The notes beneath the pieces were generated by a model. That model saw only the letters and a program-made list of their open reading frames with translations, made no database searches and had not been told where the DNA came from. Made by a program: the position numbers and the translations under genes. Shown one piece after another: positions 32,310 through 45,324 of a DNA stretch of 64,000 bases. This DNA is from Bacteroidota bacterium (GTDB taxonomy: Bacteria; Bacteroidota; Bacteroidia; Bacteroidales; ML635J-15). The DNA is taken from positions 28,936-92,935 of the forward strand of contig JAKQPY010000225.1 of the NCBI GenBank assembly GCA_029564465.1, written 5' to 3'. The stretch's first letter is position 1. Every line of letters begins with the position of its first letter.

Positions 32310-33791
32310 TTGACAGAATCTCTTAAACAAAAGGCAATTGCCGGAACTAAATGGAAAACCTCATTAAATATTGGCAGGTATTTAATGAGTTTTGCACTTT
32401 CAATTATTTTAGCCCGATTACTTGAAGTTAGAGAGTTCGGTCTGATTGGAATGGTTGCTATTCTTTCGGTCATTGCGCAAATATTTATTGACTCAGGTTT
32501 ATCACAAGCGGTAATACGACAAAAAGAAATAGGAGAAAAAGACTACGACACCGTATTTTATTTCAATATTGCCATCAGTGGTTTATTTTACATCTTATTC
32601 TTTTTTACAGCCCCCCTGGTTGCACAATTTTACAATGAACCAATTCTGATACCAGTTACAAGATGGATTACTTTGGTTTTTTTAATCAACTCTTTTGGTA
32701 CTATACAAAATTCGATATTGGTTAGAGAGATTAAATTTAAACAACAGGCATTATGTAATTTTGCCGGACTGGGTGTGTCGGTAATTATAGCTGCAATTAT
32801 GGCTTTAAAAGGTTTTGGGGTATATAGCATTGTAGCCCAAGCATTATCGCAGGCACTGATAACCAATTCTCTTTTTTGGATAACTTCCGATTGGAGACCA
32901 AAACACCGTTTTAGCACCGAAAGCTTTAAAAAGTTATGGGCTTTTGCTTCCAATATTTTAGCAACCAACATTGTGGTAAGAATCATCGAGAATATTGACA
33001 AAGTGCTAATTGCCAAAGTTTTTTCAGCTACTCAACTGGGTTATTATGTTAAAGCAAGGAGTTCAACCGATGCCAATCAGATAATATTTACCGAAACATT
33101 AAACGCCACATCTTTTGCTGTAATGGTAAAAGGGAATCGCAGCAAAGAAGAACTAAAACGGTATCACATGTTATTTTTTACTGTGGGTACCTATGTGTTT
33201 GTTCCCATTGTATTTGGTTTTATGGCAATTGCTGAAGCTTTTATTGTTGTTCTTTATTCAGCCAAATGGTTACCATCGGTTCCGATTGCTCAAATAATAG
33301 CTCTAATAGGGATCTCATATTTTTTAGACGCCTTGTTTTTGCAAACGGTAATGGTTGAAGGCAAAGGACGATTGTACTTCTGGCTTAAGTCCGGAAAAAA
33401 ATTGCTGACACTTTTGTCAATACCTGTTGGTGTTTTCATGGGTTTCTACCCTTTTATATGGAGCTTGGTTGTAATTAATTTTGTTGGACTAATCCTGAAT
33501 TTTATTTTTGTGGGCAAAATGCTAAATATTCCATGGTATATGTACCTCAAGTTTTTATTTAAACCGTTTTTATTGGGTGGAATCATGGGGGGGCTGGTGT
33601 ATTTAATTTCATTATTGCCCATGGCTCATTATTCCATCACATTAGTCCTGCAACTTTTCGCGGGATTTGTGATTTATATTACACTATCTAAAATATTTAA
33701 AATTAAAGAGTATTTTTATGTTAAAGATATTGTGATTGAACAAACGACAAAAATTAAGTTTATTCAGAGAATAATTAGGAAAATTTTATAA
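32310..33791 (+). CDS. wzx: Wzx-type oligosaccharide flippase (MOP / polysaccharide biosynthesis protein family)
   Basis: A multi-TM protein of ~490 aa. The N-terminus SLKQKAIAGTKWKTSL..FALSIILARLL is typical of this family. The start is apparently TTG, since no ATG precedes TM1. Confidence 0.8.
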   Translation: MTESLKQKAIAGTKWKTSLNIGRYLMSFALSIILARLLEVREFGLIGMVAILSVIAQIFIDSGLSQAVIRQKEIGEKDYDTVFYFNIAISGLFYILFFFTAPLVAQFYNEPILIPVTRWITLVFLINSFGTIQNSILVREIKFKQQALCNFAGLGVSVIIAAIMALKGFGVYSIVAQALSQALITNSLFWITSDWRPKHRFSTESFKKLWAFASNILATNIVVRIIENIDKVLIAKVFSATQLGYYVKARSSTDANQIIFTETLNATSFAVMVKGNRSKEELKRYHMLFFTVGTYVFVPIVFGFMAIAEAFIVVLYSAKWLPSVPIAQIIALIGISYFLDALFLQTVMVEGKGRLYFWLKSGKKLLTLLSIPVGVFMGFYPFIWSLVVINFVGLILNFIFVGKMLNIPWYMYLKFLFKPFLLGGIMGGLVYLISLLPMAHYSITLVLQLFAGFVIYITLSKIFKIKEYFYVKDIVIEQTTKIKFIQRIIRKIL

Positions 33792-33800
33792 GATAAAAAA

Positions 33801-34211
33801 ATGCTTTTTAATAGTATAGATTTTGCCATATTCTTGCCAATAGTTTTTGTTTTATATTGGTTTGTTACCACCAAAAGCCTGAAGCTGCAAAATATACTAA
33901 TCGTTGTTGCCAGTTATGTTTTTTACGGCTGGTGGGATTGGCGGTTTTTATCGTTGTTGCTCTTTAGTACGTTGGTTGATTATGTTATTGGCAGGCTACA
34001 AATCAGAGAACAAAATGAAGAGTACTTTTTAAATGAGAATGCTTTCCAACAACTTGTAAAACAAAGATATTCAGGTGTTGTATTTCTTGATTTTAGCAAT
34101 TTTTATTTACCGGACTCTTGTTACAAAGACTATCGGCATCTTAATTATTATGGGTCTTTGGTTTTTTCAAAAAAGTTTAATAACTTTATATCTGATAGTT
34201 TAATTAATTAG
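33801..34211 (+). pseudogene. Remnant of an MBOAT (AlgI/DltB-like) O-acyltransferase, fused in frame to what looks like the tail of an SGNH/AlgX-like partner
   Basis: The first ~66 aa (MLFNSIDFAIFLPIVFVLYW...ASYVFYGWWDWRFLSLLLFSTLVDYVIG) match an MBOAT N-terminus, but the ORF is only 136 aa where ~470 aa is expected. The C-terminal KDYRHLNYYGSLVFSKKF resembles an SGNH block V (DxxH). Confidence 0.6.
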
Positions 34212-34218
34212 CGTTATT

Positions 34219-42965: not shown

Positions 42966-42973
42966 TATATTTG
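42966..42973 (+). promoter_or_regulatory. Candidate internal -7 box (TATATTTG) before the last two genes of the island
   Basis: It sits in the 109-bp gap, 18 nt upstream of the ATG at 42991. Confidence 0.3.
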
Positions 42974-42990
42974 CTGCATTGAAAAAACAC

Positions 42991-44268
42991 ATGGAAAAAG
43001 TTTTAATCATTACGTACTATTATCCACCCTGTAACCTTACAGCATCTCGTCGGATTGAATCGTTCGCAAAATATCTTCCAGAGCATGGATTTTACCCAAT
43101 TGTAGTTACACGCAAATGGGAAAACGAGGTGAAAAACCCGGCAGATATTTTAATGAAAACGACTAAAGGGATAGATGTTCAAAAAAGCAATTCAGGTGAA
43201 ATTCATTATTTACCTTATCAACCGTGTTTGCGAGATAGAATATTTCAAAAATCGGATAAGGTTTTTTTTAAATTTTTGAGTAAAATACTTACAATCATAC
43301 AGATATTAGGCTATAGTTTTTCTGTAAAATTTATCCCTTTTAGTAATATCTATTTTCACGCAAAAAAACTGATTAATAAACATAATATCACTAAAATTAT
43401 AATTAGCGCCAACCCTTTTGAGATATTTCTTTTTGGCTATTTATTGAAGCGAAAACTCCATGTCAATTGGGTTGCAGACTACCGTGACGATTGGAATACA
43501 TCAGAATTGCCTGAGTACAAAAATAAGCCGTTTTTTGTTCGTAAAATTGAAACGTATTATGAAAAAAAGTGGGTGGGTTCAGCTTCAATAATTAGCACTA
43601 TATCTCCCTATTATGCGTATAAAATTAGTGAATTTGTAAACCGACCTACTGAAGTAATACTAAATGGTTTTGAATTTGATAATAATCTTTTAAAAGGAAA
43701 TAATTATAATTCGGAATTTACCATTGTTTATTTAGGTACATTGTACCAAAGTCAAATAATTGAGGTTGTGCTTCAGGGATTTAAAAATGCTGTAAATGAA
43801 CTTCAAAGTGGAATTAAAATTATTTTTCCGGGACTTGCATTTGACAAAACTCAGGCAGATCGGGTGAAATTTTTGTTGAGGGGTTATGAAGAATATTATG
43901 AAATATCTGACCGTATTCCTTTTAATAAGGTTTTAGAATTGCAGCAAAGAGCTCATCTTATGCTTATGGTGCCCCATAAAAATATTAAAGGAATTCCATC
44001 TTCTAAATTGTATGAGTATATTGGACTCGGTAAAAGAGTTTTGCTTTGTCCAAGCGACGAAGATATTATTGAAGAAACTATTTTAGACTGTAATCTAGGT
44101 TATGTTTGTACGTCGGAAGAAGGTGCTTATAAAATGTTAGTTGAAAGTGTGAAGAATAAAAAGGATTGGGAAGCAACGAATTTATCTGTTTCCCAAACCT
44201 CAAAAATTAACACCTATTCTAGAAAACATCAGGTCTACAAACTCTCATTACTATTAAACAATTTGTAA
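42991..44268 (+). CDS. Glycosyltransferase, GT4 family
   Basis: The N-terminus MEKVLIITYYYPP is typical. The C-terminus has IPSSKLYEYIGLGKRVL. A TTG at 42979 is also possible. Confidence 0.7.
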   Translation: MEKVLIITYYYPPCNLTASRRIESFAKYLPEHGFYPIVVTRKWENEVKNPADILMKTTKGIDVQKSNSGEIHYLPYQPCLRDRIFQKSDKVFFKFLSKILTIIQILGYSFSVKFIPFSNIYFHAKKLINKHNITKIIISANPFEIFLFGYLLKRKLHVNWVADYRDDWNTSELPEYKNKPFFVRKIETYYEKKWVGSASIISTISPYYAYKISEFVNRPTEVILNGFEFDNNLLKGNNYNSEFTIVYLGTLYQSQIIEVVLQGFKNAVNELQSGIKIIFPGLAFDKTQADRVKFLLRGYEEYYEISDRIPFNKVLELQQRAHLMLMVPHKNIKGIPSSKLYEYIGLGKRVLLCPSDEDIIEETILDCNLGYVCTSEEGAYKMLVESVKNKKDWEATNLSVSQTSKINTYSRKHQVYKLSLLLNNL

Positions 44269-45324
44269 ATGAAAATATTAAGTATCATCGGAGCCAGGCC
44301 TCAATTTATTAAAGCAGCCGTTGTAAGTAAGGCATTGTTAGCCCAAGGGTTACATGAGATTGTCATAAATACAGGCCAGCATTATGATTATAACATGAGC
44401 GATGTTTTTCTGAAAAATCTGAATATGCTTCCTCCACATTACAATTTAGGTGCTGGATCGGGCTCTCATGCCACAATGACAGCTGCAATTCTTTGTGGGT
44501 GCGAAGAAGTAATGATAAAAGAAAAACCAGATTGGGTGTTGGTTTATGGCGATACAAACAGCACTCTGGCTGGGGCATTGTCGGCTGCAAAACTTAAAAT
44601 TCCTGTTGCACATGTTGAGGCAGGAATTAGAATGTTACCCAAGGATATGCCGGAAGAAATTAACAGGGTTCTGGTCGATCGAATTTCGTCATTAATGTTT
44701 TGCCCTACCTTGCGGGCAGTTCAAAATCTGAGAAACGAAAACATTGTAAATGGCGTGATACACACTGGTGATGTAATGTTGGATTTATTTCAAACGATGA
44801 AATCAGAATTTGATGTAAGCATTGTCGAAAAGCTCGAATTAAAAAGGCCATTTGTTCTTGTAACCCTACACCGAGATTATAACGTTGACAACAAGAATAC
44901 GTTGGAGTGTATTTTAATGGAACTCAATCAAGTTGCGAAATCTTTCGAAATAGTATTCCCAATGCACCCTCGTACTGCAAAGAGGATAACTAATTTTGGG
45001 CTGGAAAAATTAATTTCTTCGATTAAAATTACCGAACCGTTACCCTATAGCTCTGTAATGGGGTTATTGTCGAAATCGGAATTTTTGATTACCGACAGTG
45101 GTGGTTTGCAAAAAGAAAGCTATTTCGCTGGCAAAAGAGCTTTGGTAGTAATGCCTGATACGGGCTGGATTGAACTAACCGATGCTCGAATTAATGTTTT
45201 AGCTGGAGTGAATGAAATTTCGGGAAAAATCAACCAAATTTCTTCCTCTGGTAATTTTATAACCGGAATCTTTGGGGATGGGTTTGCATCACAAAAAATC
45301 GCCCGTGTTTTTGCAGAAATGTAG
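44269..45324 (+). CDS. wecB: UDP-N-acetylglucosamine 2-epimerase (non-hydrolysing type)
   Basis: MKILSIIGARPQFIKAAVV, NTGQHYDYNMSDVFL, VYGDTNSTLAGAL, HVEAGIR and DSGGLQKE. Confidence 0.9.
   Translation: MKILSIIGARPQFIKAAVVSKALLAQGLHEIVINTGQHYDYNMSDVFLKNLNMLPPHYNLGAGSGSHATMTAAILCGCEEVMIKEKPDWVLVYGDTNSTLAGALSAAKLKIPVAHVEAGIRMLPKDMPEEINRVLVDRISSLMFCPTLRAVQNLRNENIVNGVIHTGDVMLDLFQTMKSEFDVSIVEKLELKRPFVLVTLHRDYNVDNKNTLECILMELNQVAKSFEIVFPMHPRTAKRITNFGLEKLISSIKITEPLPYSSVMGLLSKSEFLITDSGGLQKESYFAGKRALVVMPDTGWIELTDARINVLAGVNEISGKINQISSSGNFITGIFGDGFASQKIARVFAEM

Follow-up and report, generated by a model that had tools for sequence, protein, structure and literature searches.

A described precedent for exchanging the acetyl group of an amino sugar for an amino acid is the Vim system of Porphyromonas and Tannerella, in which VimE (CE4) and VimA (a FemAB-family protein that matches TIGR03019) replace the 2-N-acetyl group with serine or glycine and VimF (GT4) transfers the sugar; in T. 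forsythia the vimF homologue and a predicted epimerase bear consecutive locus tags (PMC7468200). The lipopolysaccharide (LPS) genes of P. gingivalis, namely wbaP, wbaQ, gtf, vim, wzy, wzzP and waaL, are spread over separate regions (PMC8003790, PMC13086638). In this organism the A-linking saccharide, assembled by an initiator and three glycosyltransferases, is present in single copy, anchors T9SS cargo and caps the O-polysaccharide, and the wzx-like gene porS and genes for linking sugars share a conserved cluster. According to the literature, there must be additional pathways to linking sugars, and how the N-alanyl-deoxyhexose linker of P. intermedia is made is unknown (PMC11969387).

Here we analyze a 64-kb stretch of DNA (the window) from an uncultured, T9SS-bearing Bacteroidales bacterium, in which positions 32310-45324 constitute one operon, a real AT-rich set of sugar-chain genes. 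A preliminary description had reported 13 co-directional, mostly overlapping or abutting genes in AT-rich DNA that code for proteins rich in K, N, I, F and Y. The 13 reading frames, all on the + strand and at exactly the coordinates first described, agree with this; the gaps between them are, in order, 9, 7, -7, -4, 25, 1, 12, 3, 6, -1, 109 and 0 bp. The GC content of the island is 0.316 versus 0.431 elsewhere in the window; in 1-kb windows the mean is 0.311 inside (n=24) versus 0.433 outside (n=99; Mann-Whitney p = 2e-13), with just 1% of the outside ones as AT-rich as the island mean. The comparison of codon usage with the flanks that had been proposed gave a similar picture, with GC3 at 0.22-0.31 in the island genes (0.355 in WecB) versus 0.33-0.53 in the flanks. 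Twelve of the 13 proteins have a K+N+I+F+Y fraction of 0.35-0.44, the exception being WecB at 0.27; in the large flanking proteins it is 0.24-0.30. Profile and fold searches also verified every family call of the original inventory, including the weak ones. Three parts (32310-37162, 37188-39105 and 39118-45324) make up the operon, which is a recombinational mosaic. A possible promoter element read from the sequence, TAGTTTTG (32231-32238, + strand), lies 72 nt 5' of the wzx start and matches TAnnTTTG, which we take to be the Bacteroidota -7 consensus; this motif is short and within AT-rich DNA, and is hence weak evidence.

The third part, nearly half of the island, is a mobile cassette with the order GT4-LbH-Fem-CE4-like-GT-2-epimerase. 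It begins with a 381-residue GT4 glycosyltransferase (39118-40263; Glyco_transf_4 and Glycos_transf_1 matches) and a 187-residue LbH acetyltransferase of the WbbJ/maltose-acetyltransferase-like type (40267-40830; Hexapep E = 8e-16; top NCBIfam match WbbJ). The first of the two core genes (40837-41844) codes for a 335-residue protein that profile and fold searches predict to be a Fem-family aminoacyl-tRNA-dependent aminoacyltransferase. Its family profile matches FemX (6snr; 2e-9) and an aminoacyl-tRNA-dependent peptide synthase (9wqw), and the top 25 Foldseek PDB matches of its AF2 model (pLDDT 94.2) are all aminoacyl-tRNA-dependent transferases, with TM scores of 0.63-0.70 versus 0.35-0.45 for acyl-CoA tandem GNATs. 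The fold matches include Sbb17, which has been solved with the amino-sugar compound streptothrisamine bound, and the top NCBIfam match of the 335-residue protein, a weak one (21 bits, E = 1e-4), is TIGR03019, the model also matched by VimA. The second core gene (41844-42869), whose start codon overlaps the Fem stop, codes for a 341-residue predicted deacetylase with a divergent CE4 fold. Pfam searches at E <= 0.01 recovered nothing for this protein, the top match being Polysacc_deac_1 at E = 0.014, under the gathering cut-off; it does display conserved CE4-type motifs, with D11, H91/H93/H95, R154 and H311 invariant, and the top PDB fold matches of its AF2 model (pLDDT 94.6) are all CE4. There follows a divergent GT-B/GT4-like glycosyltransferase (42979-44268; sub-cut-off Glyco_transf_4, E = 3e-4) of 429 residues from a TTG, or 425 if started at the ATG at 42991 as in public gene calls, for which a sequence search for solved relatives returned none. 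The last gene codes for a 351-residue WecB-family nucleotide-sugar 2-epimerase (44269-45324; TIGR00236 262 bits, cut-off 210).

We find parts of this cassette at 17 further loci. Sixteen are from Bacteroidota; the other, a Fem/CE4-like pair in a Sulfurovum metagenome-assembled genome, indicates that the pair is not limited to that phylum. The CE4-like gene lies directly 3' of the Fem gene in 14 of the 17 independent loci, and natural fusions of the two exist in both orders (CE4-like then Fem in P0295; Fem then CE4-like in P0299), which argues for their functional coupling. As for the other members, 10 loci have an LbH homologue (42-74% identity) adjacent or close to the Fem gene, the divergent glycosyltransferase comes after the CE4-like gene in nine, and the epimerase lies 3' of the glycosyltransferase in three (L011, with 64% identity, L015 and L017); a homologue of the 381-residue GT4 (43% identical) occupies the equivalent position in L005. 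In P0205 and P0233 the Fem domain is fused to an aminoglycoside-3-N-acetyltransferase domain. Two of the 17 are ABC-transporter O-polysaccharide loci, with Wzm and a Wzt bearing the Wzt_C domain (L003/L008 and L009), and Wbp-type or amidotransferase genes are present in three: L003 has a WbpB/WbpD/WbpE-like trio, L015 has a GFO_IDH_MocA oxidoreductase and an asparagine-synthase-type amidotransferase immediately 3' of the epimerase, and L005 has an amidotransferase.

The cassette thus appears analogous in its logic to Vim, as both combine a CE4 enzyme, a Fem-family transferase, a glycosyltransferase and a 2-epimerase. Judging by these sequence relationships, it most likely replaces the acetyl group of an amino sugar with an amino acid. 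We propose that the epimerase would furnish a manno-configured N-acetyl amino sugar, that the divergent glycosyltransferase would transfer it, and that the CE4-like enzyme would then strip the N-acetyl group off the transferred sugar. The Fem-family enzyme would move an amino acid from aminoacyl-tRNA to the freed amine, and the LbH enzyme would acetylate the aminoacylated product, an order that fits the fusions of Fem with aminoglycoside-3-N-acetyltransferase domains. Since Wbp genes, including the WbpA and WbpB types, are missing from the window, the cassette may act here on a substrate other than the Wbp product.

The first part of the operon opens with Wzx1, a 493-residue MOP-family flippase with about 12-14 hydrophobic segments (32310-33791; Polysacc_synt_3 E = 2e-73), the sole multi-TM protein among the 13. 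The next gene is a remnant of an O-acyltransferase module (136 residues; 33801-34211), residues 1-65 of which align to the N-terminus of intact MBOATs of 477-500 residues. It is 78% identical to the intact 477-residue MBOAT in L033, which there comes after a Wzx 75% identical to Wzx1, and 50% identical to the N-terminus of a 500-residue MBOAT-like protein in L014; its tail bears a weak likeness (E = 0.21 only) to the C-terminus of an SGNH partner. The locus has consequently undergone at least one deletion, and the O-acylation module would be dead. The DegT-family sugar aminotransferase that follows (34219-35292; DegT_DnrJ_EryC1 E = 3e-79) has DesI as its nearest solved structure (2po3, E = 9e-49; WbpE, 2e-35) and in sequence appears closest to 4-aminotransferases of 4-keto-6-deoxyhexoses. 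Its neighbor, a NeuD/PglB/VioB-type N-acetyltransferase with PglD_N and LbH domains (35286-35915; TIGR03570 189.7 bits, cut-off 160.8), is nearest to VioB (7txp, 2e-22) and PglD (1e-21). In the manner of VioA/VioB or PglE/PglD, the two would convert a 4-keto-6-deoxy nucleotide sugar to a 4-acetamido-4,6-dideoxyhexose, the dehydratase feeding the DegT step being encoded elsewhere. A 416-residue GT4 glycosyltransferase (35912-37162; Glycos_transf_1 E = 2e-12) completes this part. The second part combines a 328-residue CE4 polysaccharide/amino-sugar de-N-acetylase (37188-38174; Polysacc_deac_1 E = 1e-16; CE4 matches in PDB) with, directly 3' of it, a 309-residue Eis-like GNAT N-acyltransferase (38176-39105; Acetyltransf_9 E = 8e-5), whose family profile matches the GNAT structures 2i00 (6e-6) and 3n7z and for which hhalign gave no relationship to the Fem protein. 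Homologues of the two adjoin each other in L005, L010 and L018; they may replace an amino-sugar N-acetyl group with a different acyl group, the GNAT being of the acyl-CoA type.

Scans of ORFs of at least 120 residues in the island and the 64-kb window, which included the proposed search for Wzy_C, Bac_transf and Glycos_transf_4, gave zero matches to these models and to Wzz and Poly_export. Likewise, we saw no Wza, Wzc, UpxY/UpxZ-type, WaaL or phosphoglycosyltransferase genes in the window, so that the reported lack of a polymerase, chain-length regulator, exporter and initiating transferase in the island extends window-wide. The reported lack of a 4,6-dehydratase is true of the island but not of its surroundings: PseB, an inverting UDP-GlcNAc 4,6-dehydratase (503 bits versus the 408-bit cut-off), starts 8 kb downstream. 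It belongs to a + strand set of pseudaminic-acid genes (53359-60347) comprising PseB, PseC, a Schlafen/AlbA_2 insert, PseF, a NeuD-type acyltransferase, a PseG-like gene and PseI, with PseB, PseC, PseF and PseI each exceeding NCBIfam equivalog cut-offs. Beyond these lies Wzx2 (62661-63956, + strand; Polysacc_synt E = 3e-12), a second MOP flippase with about 12 TM segments that opens another AT-rich glycan segment (GC 0.29-0.34) continuing past the window end; in L006 a gene of at least 363 residues comes after this second flippase. Given the nearby pse set and second flippase, the island is not self-contained.

On balance, we lean toward the operon directing the synthesis of an undecaprenyl-linked, LPS-type glycan unit with N-aminoacylated amino sugars; we infer the substrates, order of steps, amino acid and acceptor from the gene content, folds, cassette order, fusions and absences described above. 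One undecaprenyl-diphosphate-linked heteroglycan unit would be built at the cytoplasmic face and flipped by Wzx1, and other loci would supply in trans the transferase that initiates it, as well as any ligase, polymerase or chain-length regulator. Such partners are plausible, as this is normal in P. gingivalis LPS synthesis, and other parts of the genome probably encode the polymerase and starter enzymes "missing" here. LPS is the most likely destination, as an O-unit or a single-copy cap; with WaaL, Wzy and a phosphoglycosyltransferase missing from the 64 kb, this assignment draws on the cassette contexts in other genomes.

An unlikely alternative is a T9SS linking saccharide, an analog of the A-linking saccharide in which a single-copy, non-polymerized oligosaccharide would offer its N-aminoacyl amine to PorU for joining to cargo C-termini. 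The Vim-like gene logic points this way, as do a flippase and three glycosyltransferases without a polymerase, which would suit a capping unit, the DegT gene after wzx, recalling the clustering of porS with linking-sugar genes, and the requirement for additional linking-sugar pathways in the literature (PMC11969387). T9SS cargo also flanks the operon on both sides: the large flanking proteins, described earlier as Ser/Thr-rich and secreted, indeed have 16-21% Ser+Thr and one N-terminal hydrophobic segment each, and two of them (26590-28161 and 45377-52906) carry a T9SS sorting domain. The latter, a 2509-residue PKD-repeat protein (- strand, convergent with the operon; PKD_4 and Por_Secre_tail matches), is encoded by the single gene between the island and the 53359-63956 block, and in L012 and L018, too, the cassette has genes for PKD-type proteins nearby. 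However, genomes of this kind have numerous cargo genes, with four sorting-domain proteins in the window, so this adjacency may be chance; PorU, PorZ and Wbp genes are missing from the window; and the conserved LbH enzyme could cap the amine of the amino acid and block the sortase. Moreover, the cassette also occurs in ABC-transporter O-polysaccharide loci and in part in Sulfurovum, from a phylum outside the T9SS-bearing groups, and any orthology to Vim is putative, the TIGR03019 match being weak.

The preliminary description had pointed to oligosaccharide systems such as general protein O-glycosylation (lfg-type) or LOS-type loci. That the operon specifies the species-specific outer glycan of the Bacteroidota LFG-type system, or an LOS-type oligosaccharide, we regard as quite improbable. 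Like LFG loci, the island has a flippase and glycosyltransferases without a polymerase or initiator; WecB and the nearby pse genes recall the T. forsythia O-glycosylation cluster, and the neighboring PKD protein has 21 D(S/T)(A/I/L/V/M/T) motifs. Yet LFG-type loci have metG next to wzx and a conserved terminal GT2/GT4 pair, whereas the island lacks both and any GT2, and metG is missing from the whole window. The top NCBIfam match of Wzx1 is Oglyco_Wzx, but its 262 bits fall under the 720-bit cut-off and are close to the 191 and 173 bits obtained with the generic MOP-flippase and TuaB models, and the pse genes adjoin Wzx2 rather than this operon. Membership in the LFG group fails on every testable defining feature. 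The accompanying argument from the lack of a polymerase to an oligosaccharide system is unsafe in Bacteroidota, given the scattered LPS genes of P. gingivalis and the cassette in Wzm/Wzt O-polysaccharide loci elsewhere. The earlier inventory and in-island absences are correct, and the earlier interpretation has partial support. A flipped, non-polymerized oligosaccharide in general is conceivable, and the A-linking saccharide would be a better precedent for it than lfg or LOS loci.

A capsule or exopolysaccharide repeat unit, with its polymerase and Wza/Wzc export genes elsewhere, is more doubtful still: a low-GC mosaic with Wzx, GT4 genes and acetyltransferases is typical of capsule loci and there is another glycan segment close by that has a flippase of its own, but Wza, Wzc, Wzy and UpxY/UpxZ-type genes are missing throughout the 64 kb, and the other cassette contexts with an identifiable assembly route are of the Wzm/Wzt type. 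The MBOAT remnant and the local lack of essential partner functions might suggest that a locus acquired by horizontal transfer is decaying here and no longer functions. This is very improbable: the other 12 reading frames are intact and lie close together, the CE4-like protein keeps its catalytic-type residues, the predicted Fem and CE4-like models are confident, and the sequence is 99.99-100% identical across contigs from several independent samples.

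The operon at 32310-45324 comprises thirteen plus-strand ORFs, and a preliminary description of this DNA had placed every one of them at exactly the positions that we recover. Intergenic gaps within it range from -7 to 25 bp, with the single exception of 109 bp 5' of the twelfth gene. The AT-richness claimed in that description is equally clear: GC is 0.316 in the island against 0.431 in the remaining window, all 24 half-overlapping 1-kb windows of the island have a GC of 0.373 or less as against a mean of 0.433 for the 99 outside it (Mann-Whitney p = 2e-13), and the GC3 of the island goes down to 0.22-0.31. 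The proteins were also said to be rich in K, N, I, F and Y, and these residues indeed constitute a fraction of 0.35-0.44 in 12 of the 13, the exception being WecB (0.27), compared to ~0.24-0.30 in the large flanking proteins. The public contigs that carry the operon proteins come from several samples and are without exception 99.99-100% identical to the window; no alternative alleles were found at the locus.

The family previously assigned to each of the 13 genes was checked, and the inventory was borne out. The operon begins with a Wzx flippase (Wzx1; 32310-33791; Polysacc_synt_3, E = 2e-73) and a 136-aa ORF (33801-34211), whose first 65 residues correspond to the N-terminus of MBOAT. A metagenome scan with Wzx1 recovered one relative, 75% identical, on a 3.5-kb contig, where it is followed by an intact 477-aa MBOAT gene; given this arrangement and the match in its first 65 residues, the ORF is a deletion remnant. 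Next in the operon are genes for a DegT aminotransferase (34219-35292; E = 3e-79), a NeuD/PglB/VioB-type LbH protein (35286-35915; over the NCBIfam cut-off), a GT4 glycosyltransferase (35912-37162), a canonical CE4 deacetylase (37188-38174; E = 1e-16) and a 309-aa GNAT (GNAT_309; 38176-39105; weak Acetyltransf_9 match). The rest of the operon, hereinafter the cassette (39118-45324), codes for a further GT4 (39118-40263), a WbbJ-like LbH protein (40267-40830), a FemAB-like protein (Fem_335; 40837-41844; FemAB Pfam, E = 1e-7), a 341-aa protein with no Pfam match at E <= 0.01 (CE4L_341; 41844-42869), a GT4-like protein with a sub-threshold match (GT_429; 42979-44268; E = 3e-4) and the 2-epimerase WecB (44269-45324; over the cut-off). 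A word-indexed homologue search with GNAT_309 gave just 2 relatives, and a small alignment was built from neighboring loci instead; by profile it is an Eis-like GNAT (against 2i00, E = 6e-6). A relationship between GNAT_309 and Fem_335 was rejected (hhalign probability 0.2), and GT_429 has no solved relatives by sequence or profile.

A profile of the Fem_335 family searched against the PDB recovered S. aureus FemX (E = 2e-9), an aminoacyl-tRNA-dependent peptide synthase (E = 1.5e-8) and Weissella FemX. The best 25 Foldseek matches of its AlphaFold model (pLDDT 94.2) in the PDB are all aminoacyl-tRNA-dependent transferases, namely Sbb17/Sba18, FemX, FemA and MprF-type synthases, and the acyl-CoA tandem GNATs have clearly lower fold scores. 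The model predicts a tandem-GNAT Fem fold for Fem_335, which also has significant sequence-profile similarity to the Fem transferases. TM-scores to the Fem ligases and Sbb17/Sba18 peptide synthases (6snr, 1ne9, 9wqx) are 0.63-0.70, and the size of Weissella FemX is similar (~335 aa). Weissella FemX acts on a soluble UDP-linked substrate, and the Sbb17 structure was solved with the amino-sugar compound streptothrisamine bound. Unlike these enzymes, with which it shares ~12-14% sequence identity, Fem_335 is encoded in a Gram-negative surface-glycan operon and is paired or fused with a CE4-like deacetylase.

CE4L_341 was placed by fold: its family profile gave no match by sequence in the PDB and its Pfam CE4 score is under the cut-off, whereas the best PDB fold matches of the AF2 model (pLDDT 94.6) are CE4 deacetylases only, HpPgdA among them (probability 1.00). 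With D11, H91, H93, H95, R154 and H311 invariant in the family, the modelled structure is predicted to be a NodB/CE4 fold bearing the Asp and His-His metal/catalytic motifs. CE4L_341 has no detectable sequence relationship to the canonical CE4 protein of the same operon, and the two are assigned to CE4 by separate evidence.

An exhaustive profile search for the wider Fem-like family yielded 9271 cluster representatives, of which 227 are at E <= 1e-30, and among the best matches are natural fusions: in P0295 a CE4-like domain precedes the Fem domain, and in P0299 the order is reversed. That the two domains are fused in both orders argues strongly for a deacetylase and an aminoacyl transferase working in succession on one substrate. 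Two further proteins (P0205 and P0233) join the Fem domain to an aminoglycoside-3-N-acetyltransferase domain and a third, P0175, is a tandem Fem-Fem protein of 693 aa; their architectures point to a varied aminoacylate-then-acetylate chemistry.

Scanning species-representative genomes with the Fem-family profile recovered 16 loci, all in metagenome-assembled genomes, from Bacteroidales, Chitinophagales, Flavobacteriales and Marinifilaceae and from one Sulfurovum. Two more came from metagenome contigs, one of them duplicating a genome locus, which gives 17 distinct loci besides the window. When the window proteins were mapped onto these, 14 of the 17 showed the CE4-like gene directly 3' of the Fem gene, 10/17 an LbH gene beside or near the Fem gene, 9/17 a GT_429 homolog following and 3/17 a WecB-family epimerase after this glycosyltransferase; at L011 the epimerase is 64% and the glycosyltransferase 55% identical to those of the window. 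The CE4 + GNAT pair recurs as well (L005, L010, L018), and L019 and L022 contain related pairs. In these last two, both Bacteroidales assemblies, a Fem/CE4-like/GT block is directly followed by genes for a tandem GNAT and a canonical CE4 enzyme (L019:2613-4500 and L022:2498-4385), an order suggesting that the two N-acyl-exchange pairs tend to travel together, as in the window. Wzx1 and the glycosyltransferase GT4a have no counterparts in the 17 loci, and the DegT and NeuD-type genes match Wbp-type genes there only weakly (27-32% identity). The operon is a mosaic, of which nearly half is a travelling cassette.

N-aminoacylated amino sugars are found in O-antigens and also serve as the handle that ties type IX-secreted proteins to the Bacteroidota surface. 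To our knowledge, genes have been established for just one route to such sugars, the Wbp/Vim pathway of two oral pathogens. There, VimE (CE4) takes the 2-N-acetyl group off the Wbp-pathway sugar and VimA, a FemAB-family protein matching TIGR03019, adds Ser or Gly; VimF (GT4) is also required, and the locus tags of the T. forsythia VimF homolog and of a predicted 2-epimerase are consecutive (PMC7468200). The cassette resembles the Wbp/Vim pathway and A-linking saccharide of P. gingivalis and T. forsythia (PMC7468200, PMC13086638) in bringing together, contiguously, a CE4-like enzyme, a Fem-family transferase, a glycosyltransferase and a 2-epimerase. It further shares the logic of exchanging an N-acetyl group for an amino acid, a flipped unit with few glycosyltransferases and no dedicated polymerase, and a T9SS-bearing Bacteroidales host. 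The model reported for VimA is also the top NCBIfam match of Fem_335, albeit weakly (E = 1e-4).

The likeness extends to gene neighbors in other genomes, where the cassette is found beside WbpB/D/E-like genes and asparagine-synthase-type amidotransferases: L003 has a GFO_IDH_MocA / LbH / DegT trio of WbpB/D/E type; in L015 the genes after the epimerase code for a GFO_IDH_MocA oxidoreductase and an amidotransferase of asparagine-synthase type, a gene order that L017 shares, as judged on order and size alone; and in L005 such an amidotransferase lies just upstream. The neighbors in L003, L015 and L005 are partners of the published Wbp/Vim pathway. In contrast, neither a UDP-sugar 6-dehydrogenase nor a GFO_IDH_MocA oxidoreductase, and hence neither WbpA nor WbpB, was detected in the window, which thus does not hold the WbpA, WbpB, WbpE and WbpD set that supplies the 2,3-diacetamido-2,3-dideoxyuronic acid. 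The aminotransferase/acetyltransferase pair of the operon is VioA/VioB- or PglE/PglD-like, the DegT protein being closest to DesI (9e-49) and the LbH protein to VioB/PglD (2e-22, 1e-21) rather than to WbpE and WbpD; Wbp-like genes could lie elsewhere in this genome. Other differences are the additional LbH acetyltransferase conserved in the cassette, a deacetylase too divergent for the Pfam CE4 cut-off, and the presence of the cassette in ABC-transporter loci and of its Fem/CE4-like core in one Campylobacterota genome. Searching the literature for the combination of FemAB, O-antigen and deacetylase returned nothing specific to the cassette; as far as we searched, this aminoacyl-sugar cassette, which recurs, resembles the Vim module and is backed by gene fusions, has apparently not been described. 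It offers a compact recurring unit, fusions coupling a deacetylase to a predicted aminoacyl-tRNA-dependent transferase and a genomic marker for N-aminoacylated sugars in uncultured bacteria.

By analogy with the Vim pathway, the epimerase would provide a manno-configured N-acetyl amino sugar, which the divergent glycosyltransferase would transfer and the CE4-like enzyme would then de-N-acetylate. The Fem enzyme would load an amino acid onto the freed amine from a predicted aminoacyl-tRNA donor, and the LbH enzyme might finally acetylate a hydroxyl group or the new amine. A second N-acyl exchange, drawing on an acyl-CoA donor, is probably the task of the CE4 + GNAT pair. As the DegT + LbH pair is closest to DesI and VioB/PglD, its predicted product is a 4-acetamido-4,6-dideoxyhexose, the 4,6-dehydratase being encoded elsewhere. 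Three glycosyltransferases and a trans-acting initiator could thus build a unit of about four sugars for Wzx1 to flip.

The preliminary description had reported no polymerase, chain-length regulator, exporter or initiating transferase in the island. Our HMM scans, covering all non-nested ORFs of at least 120 aa, found no match to Wzy_C, Wzz, Poly_export, Bac_transf or Glycos_transf_4 in the island and extend this absence of family matches to the remainder of the 64-kb window. Divergent Wzy proteins often lack a Pfam match; when multi-TM proteins encoded at the related loci were scanned against Pfam, eight were of putative polymerase or flippase type, of which seven were unmatched and the other matched DUF6056 alone (the two further proteins in that scan being the Wzm/Wzt pair of L009). 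However, beyond the missing Pfam matches, the operon offers no candidate membrane protein for Wzy at all, Wzx1 being the sole multi-TM protein among the 13. A polymerase-less island is in itself ordinary for the dispersed glycan genetics of Bacteroidota, a phylum in which dispersed LPS genes are already documented.

The destination that we favor for the glycan, by analogy, would be of LPS type, because other genomes place the cassette in Wzm/Wzt and Wbp contexts and because the wzy, waaL, wzz and initiating-transferase genes of P. gingivalis act from other loci. L003/L008 and L009 are ABC-transporter O-polysaccharide loci that hold the cassette together with Wzm and a Wzt bearing a Wzt_C domain. 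Within this LPS reading, a single-copy capping unit like the A-linking saccharide is an attractive minority possibility: that saccharide, the product of an initiator and three glycosyltransferases, never undergoes polymerisation, and T9SS cargo is attached to the aminoacyl sugar that it bears (PMC13086638). In favor of this possibility, T9SS cargo genes flank the operon left and right, and further linking-sugar pathways are expected to exist (PMC11969387). Against it, genomes of this kind have cargo genes in abundance, the amine could be blocked by the conserved LbH enzyme, and the pairing of Fem and CE4-like genes extends beyond Bacteroidota. We regard it as rather unlikely that the LbH-Fem-CE4-like-GT-2-epimerase cassette is a relative of the Vim module, horizontally mobile and hitherto undescribed, that here and in other T9SS-bearing Bacteroidota makes the aminoacyl linking sugar for a single-copy oligosaccharide cap onto which the PorU sortase joins secreted cargo. 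Were it so, the cassette would supply one of the further linking-sugar pathways raised as possible by the study of P. intermedia, the biosynthesis of whose own linker was stated as unknown by the describing authors (PMC11969387).

O-antigen and K-locus clusters of the Wzx/Wzy-dependent type that include VioA/VioB or PglE/PglD are similarly low-GC mosaic operons, and they too combine Wzx and GT4 genes with an aminotransferase/N-acetyltransferase pair, an O-acetyltransferase and a 2-epimerase; in the present case, however, wzy, wzz and the initiating phosphoglycosyltransferase are missing both locally and within 64 kb, and the operon has no 4,6-dehydratase. The preliminary description had likened the island to LFG-type O-glycosylation loci or LOS-type loci. 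The LFG-type loci, including the 27-kb cluster of T. forsythia, also combine Wzx and several glycosyltransferases with no initiator or polymerase in the locus (PMC12871550, PMC6120980), and WecB and nearby pseudaminic-acid genes are further points in common. However, an LFG-type locus starts with metG followed by wzx (PMC12871550), whereas no metG or tRNA-synthetase match was found among the scanned ORFs of at least 120 aa and the gene upstream of wzx is that of a divergent 1130-aa secreted protein. The LFG terminal pair of species-conserved glycosyltransferases (GtfL-like GT4 and GtfE-like GT2) is missing, the operon having no GT2 and ending with the divergent GT-B gene and WecB. NCBIfam Oglyco_Wzx (NF058658) is the best match of Wzx1, yet at 262 bits against a cut-off of 720 (generic MOP-flippase PRK10459, 191; TuaB, 173), and the pse genes of the window adjoin another flippase, with a 7.5-kb cargo gene between them and the operon. 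Thus, the original observation stands and its interpretation holds in part, with LFG membership failing. Finally, an integrative island is ruled out, the search for mobile-element boundaries having found no tRNA genes, no Rfam families, no integrase- or transposase-type matches among the scanned ORFs and, as flanking direct or inverted repeats, only short matches at chance level; the island is a low-GC glycan operon.

A 4,6-dehydratase had been reported as lacking, which is true of the operon but not of its neighborhood: beyond the convergent gene for a 2509-aa PKD/T9SS cargo protein (45377-52906) lies the inverting 4,6-dehydratase PseB (503 bits against a cut-off of 408). PseC, PseF and PseI each exceed their equivalog cut-offs, and a PseG-like gene (weak match) and a NeuD-type LbH acyltransferase, in the place expected of PseH, complete this pseudaminic-acid set (53359-60347). 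A Schlafen/AlbA_2 + HATPase_c_4 + HTH gene (55492-56907) interrupts the set, separating pseC from pseF. Directly 3' of pseI, genes for a MaoC-like (R)-specific enoyl-CoA hydratase and a CitE/HpcH-type lyase (60419-61847) could provide an unusual acyl-CoA with which to N-acylate the nonulosonic acid. A 136-aa ORF at 62118-62528, whose sole match is to the SAF domain in the last ~30 residues of PseI, is probably a duplicated PseI fragment at a recombination junction where a second AT-rich segment starts. This segment (GC 0.29-0.34) continues past the window end and contains a second MOP flippase with no NCBIfam match (Wzx2; 62661-63956), so that two flippase-dependent glycan segments lie side by side in the genome. 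After Wzx2 comes a soluble protein of at least 363 aa with no family match; the two are covered by window 62661-64000 and L006:11301-12389. The contigs of two samples both stop ~1.1 kb past Wzx2, suggesting an assembly break in a strain-variable region.

The 2509-aa PKD/T9SS protein, encoded on the minus strand, has 21 D(S/T)(A/I/L/V/M/T) O-glycosylation motifs (0.8 per 100 aa); of the left-flank proteins, the three large ones have 0-1 each. In a Chitinophaga assembly the gene right after the cassette glycosyltransferase (L012:7230-7543) codes for a protein whose N-terminus is 34% identical to that of this PKD protein, and in a Flavobacteriales genome a PKD-type protein (L018:18987-20891) is encoded ~7 kb from the cassette; the adhesin-cassette neighborhood may be recurrent or due to chance. 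The 1130-aa secreted protein (28255-31647, minus strand) contains many copies of a G-I-G-T-x-x-P-x-x-K-L-H-V motif and has no Pfam or NCBIfam match, the adjoining 985-aa and 1182-aa proteins being likewise unannotatable. A separate AT-rich patch (GC 0.35-0.40) between two T9SS cargo genes encodes a 285-aa protein (2182-3039, minus strand) with a weak match to MptE-like/DUF115 (E = 5e-4), a family that includes the Maf-type nonulosonic-acid transferases.
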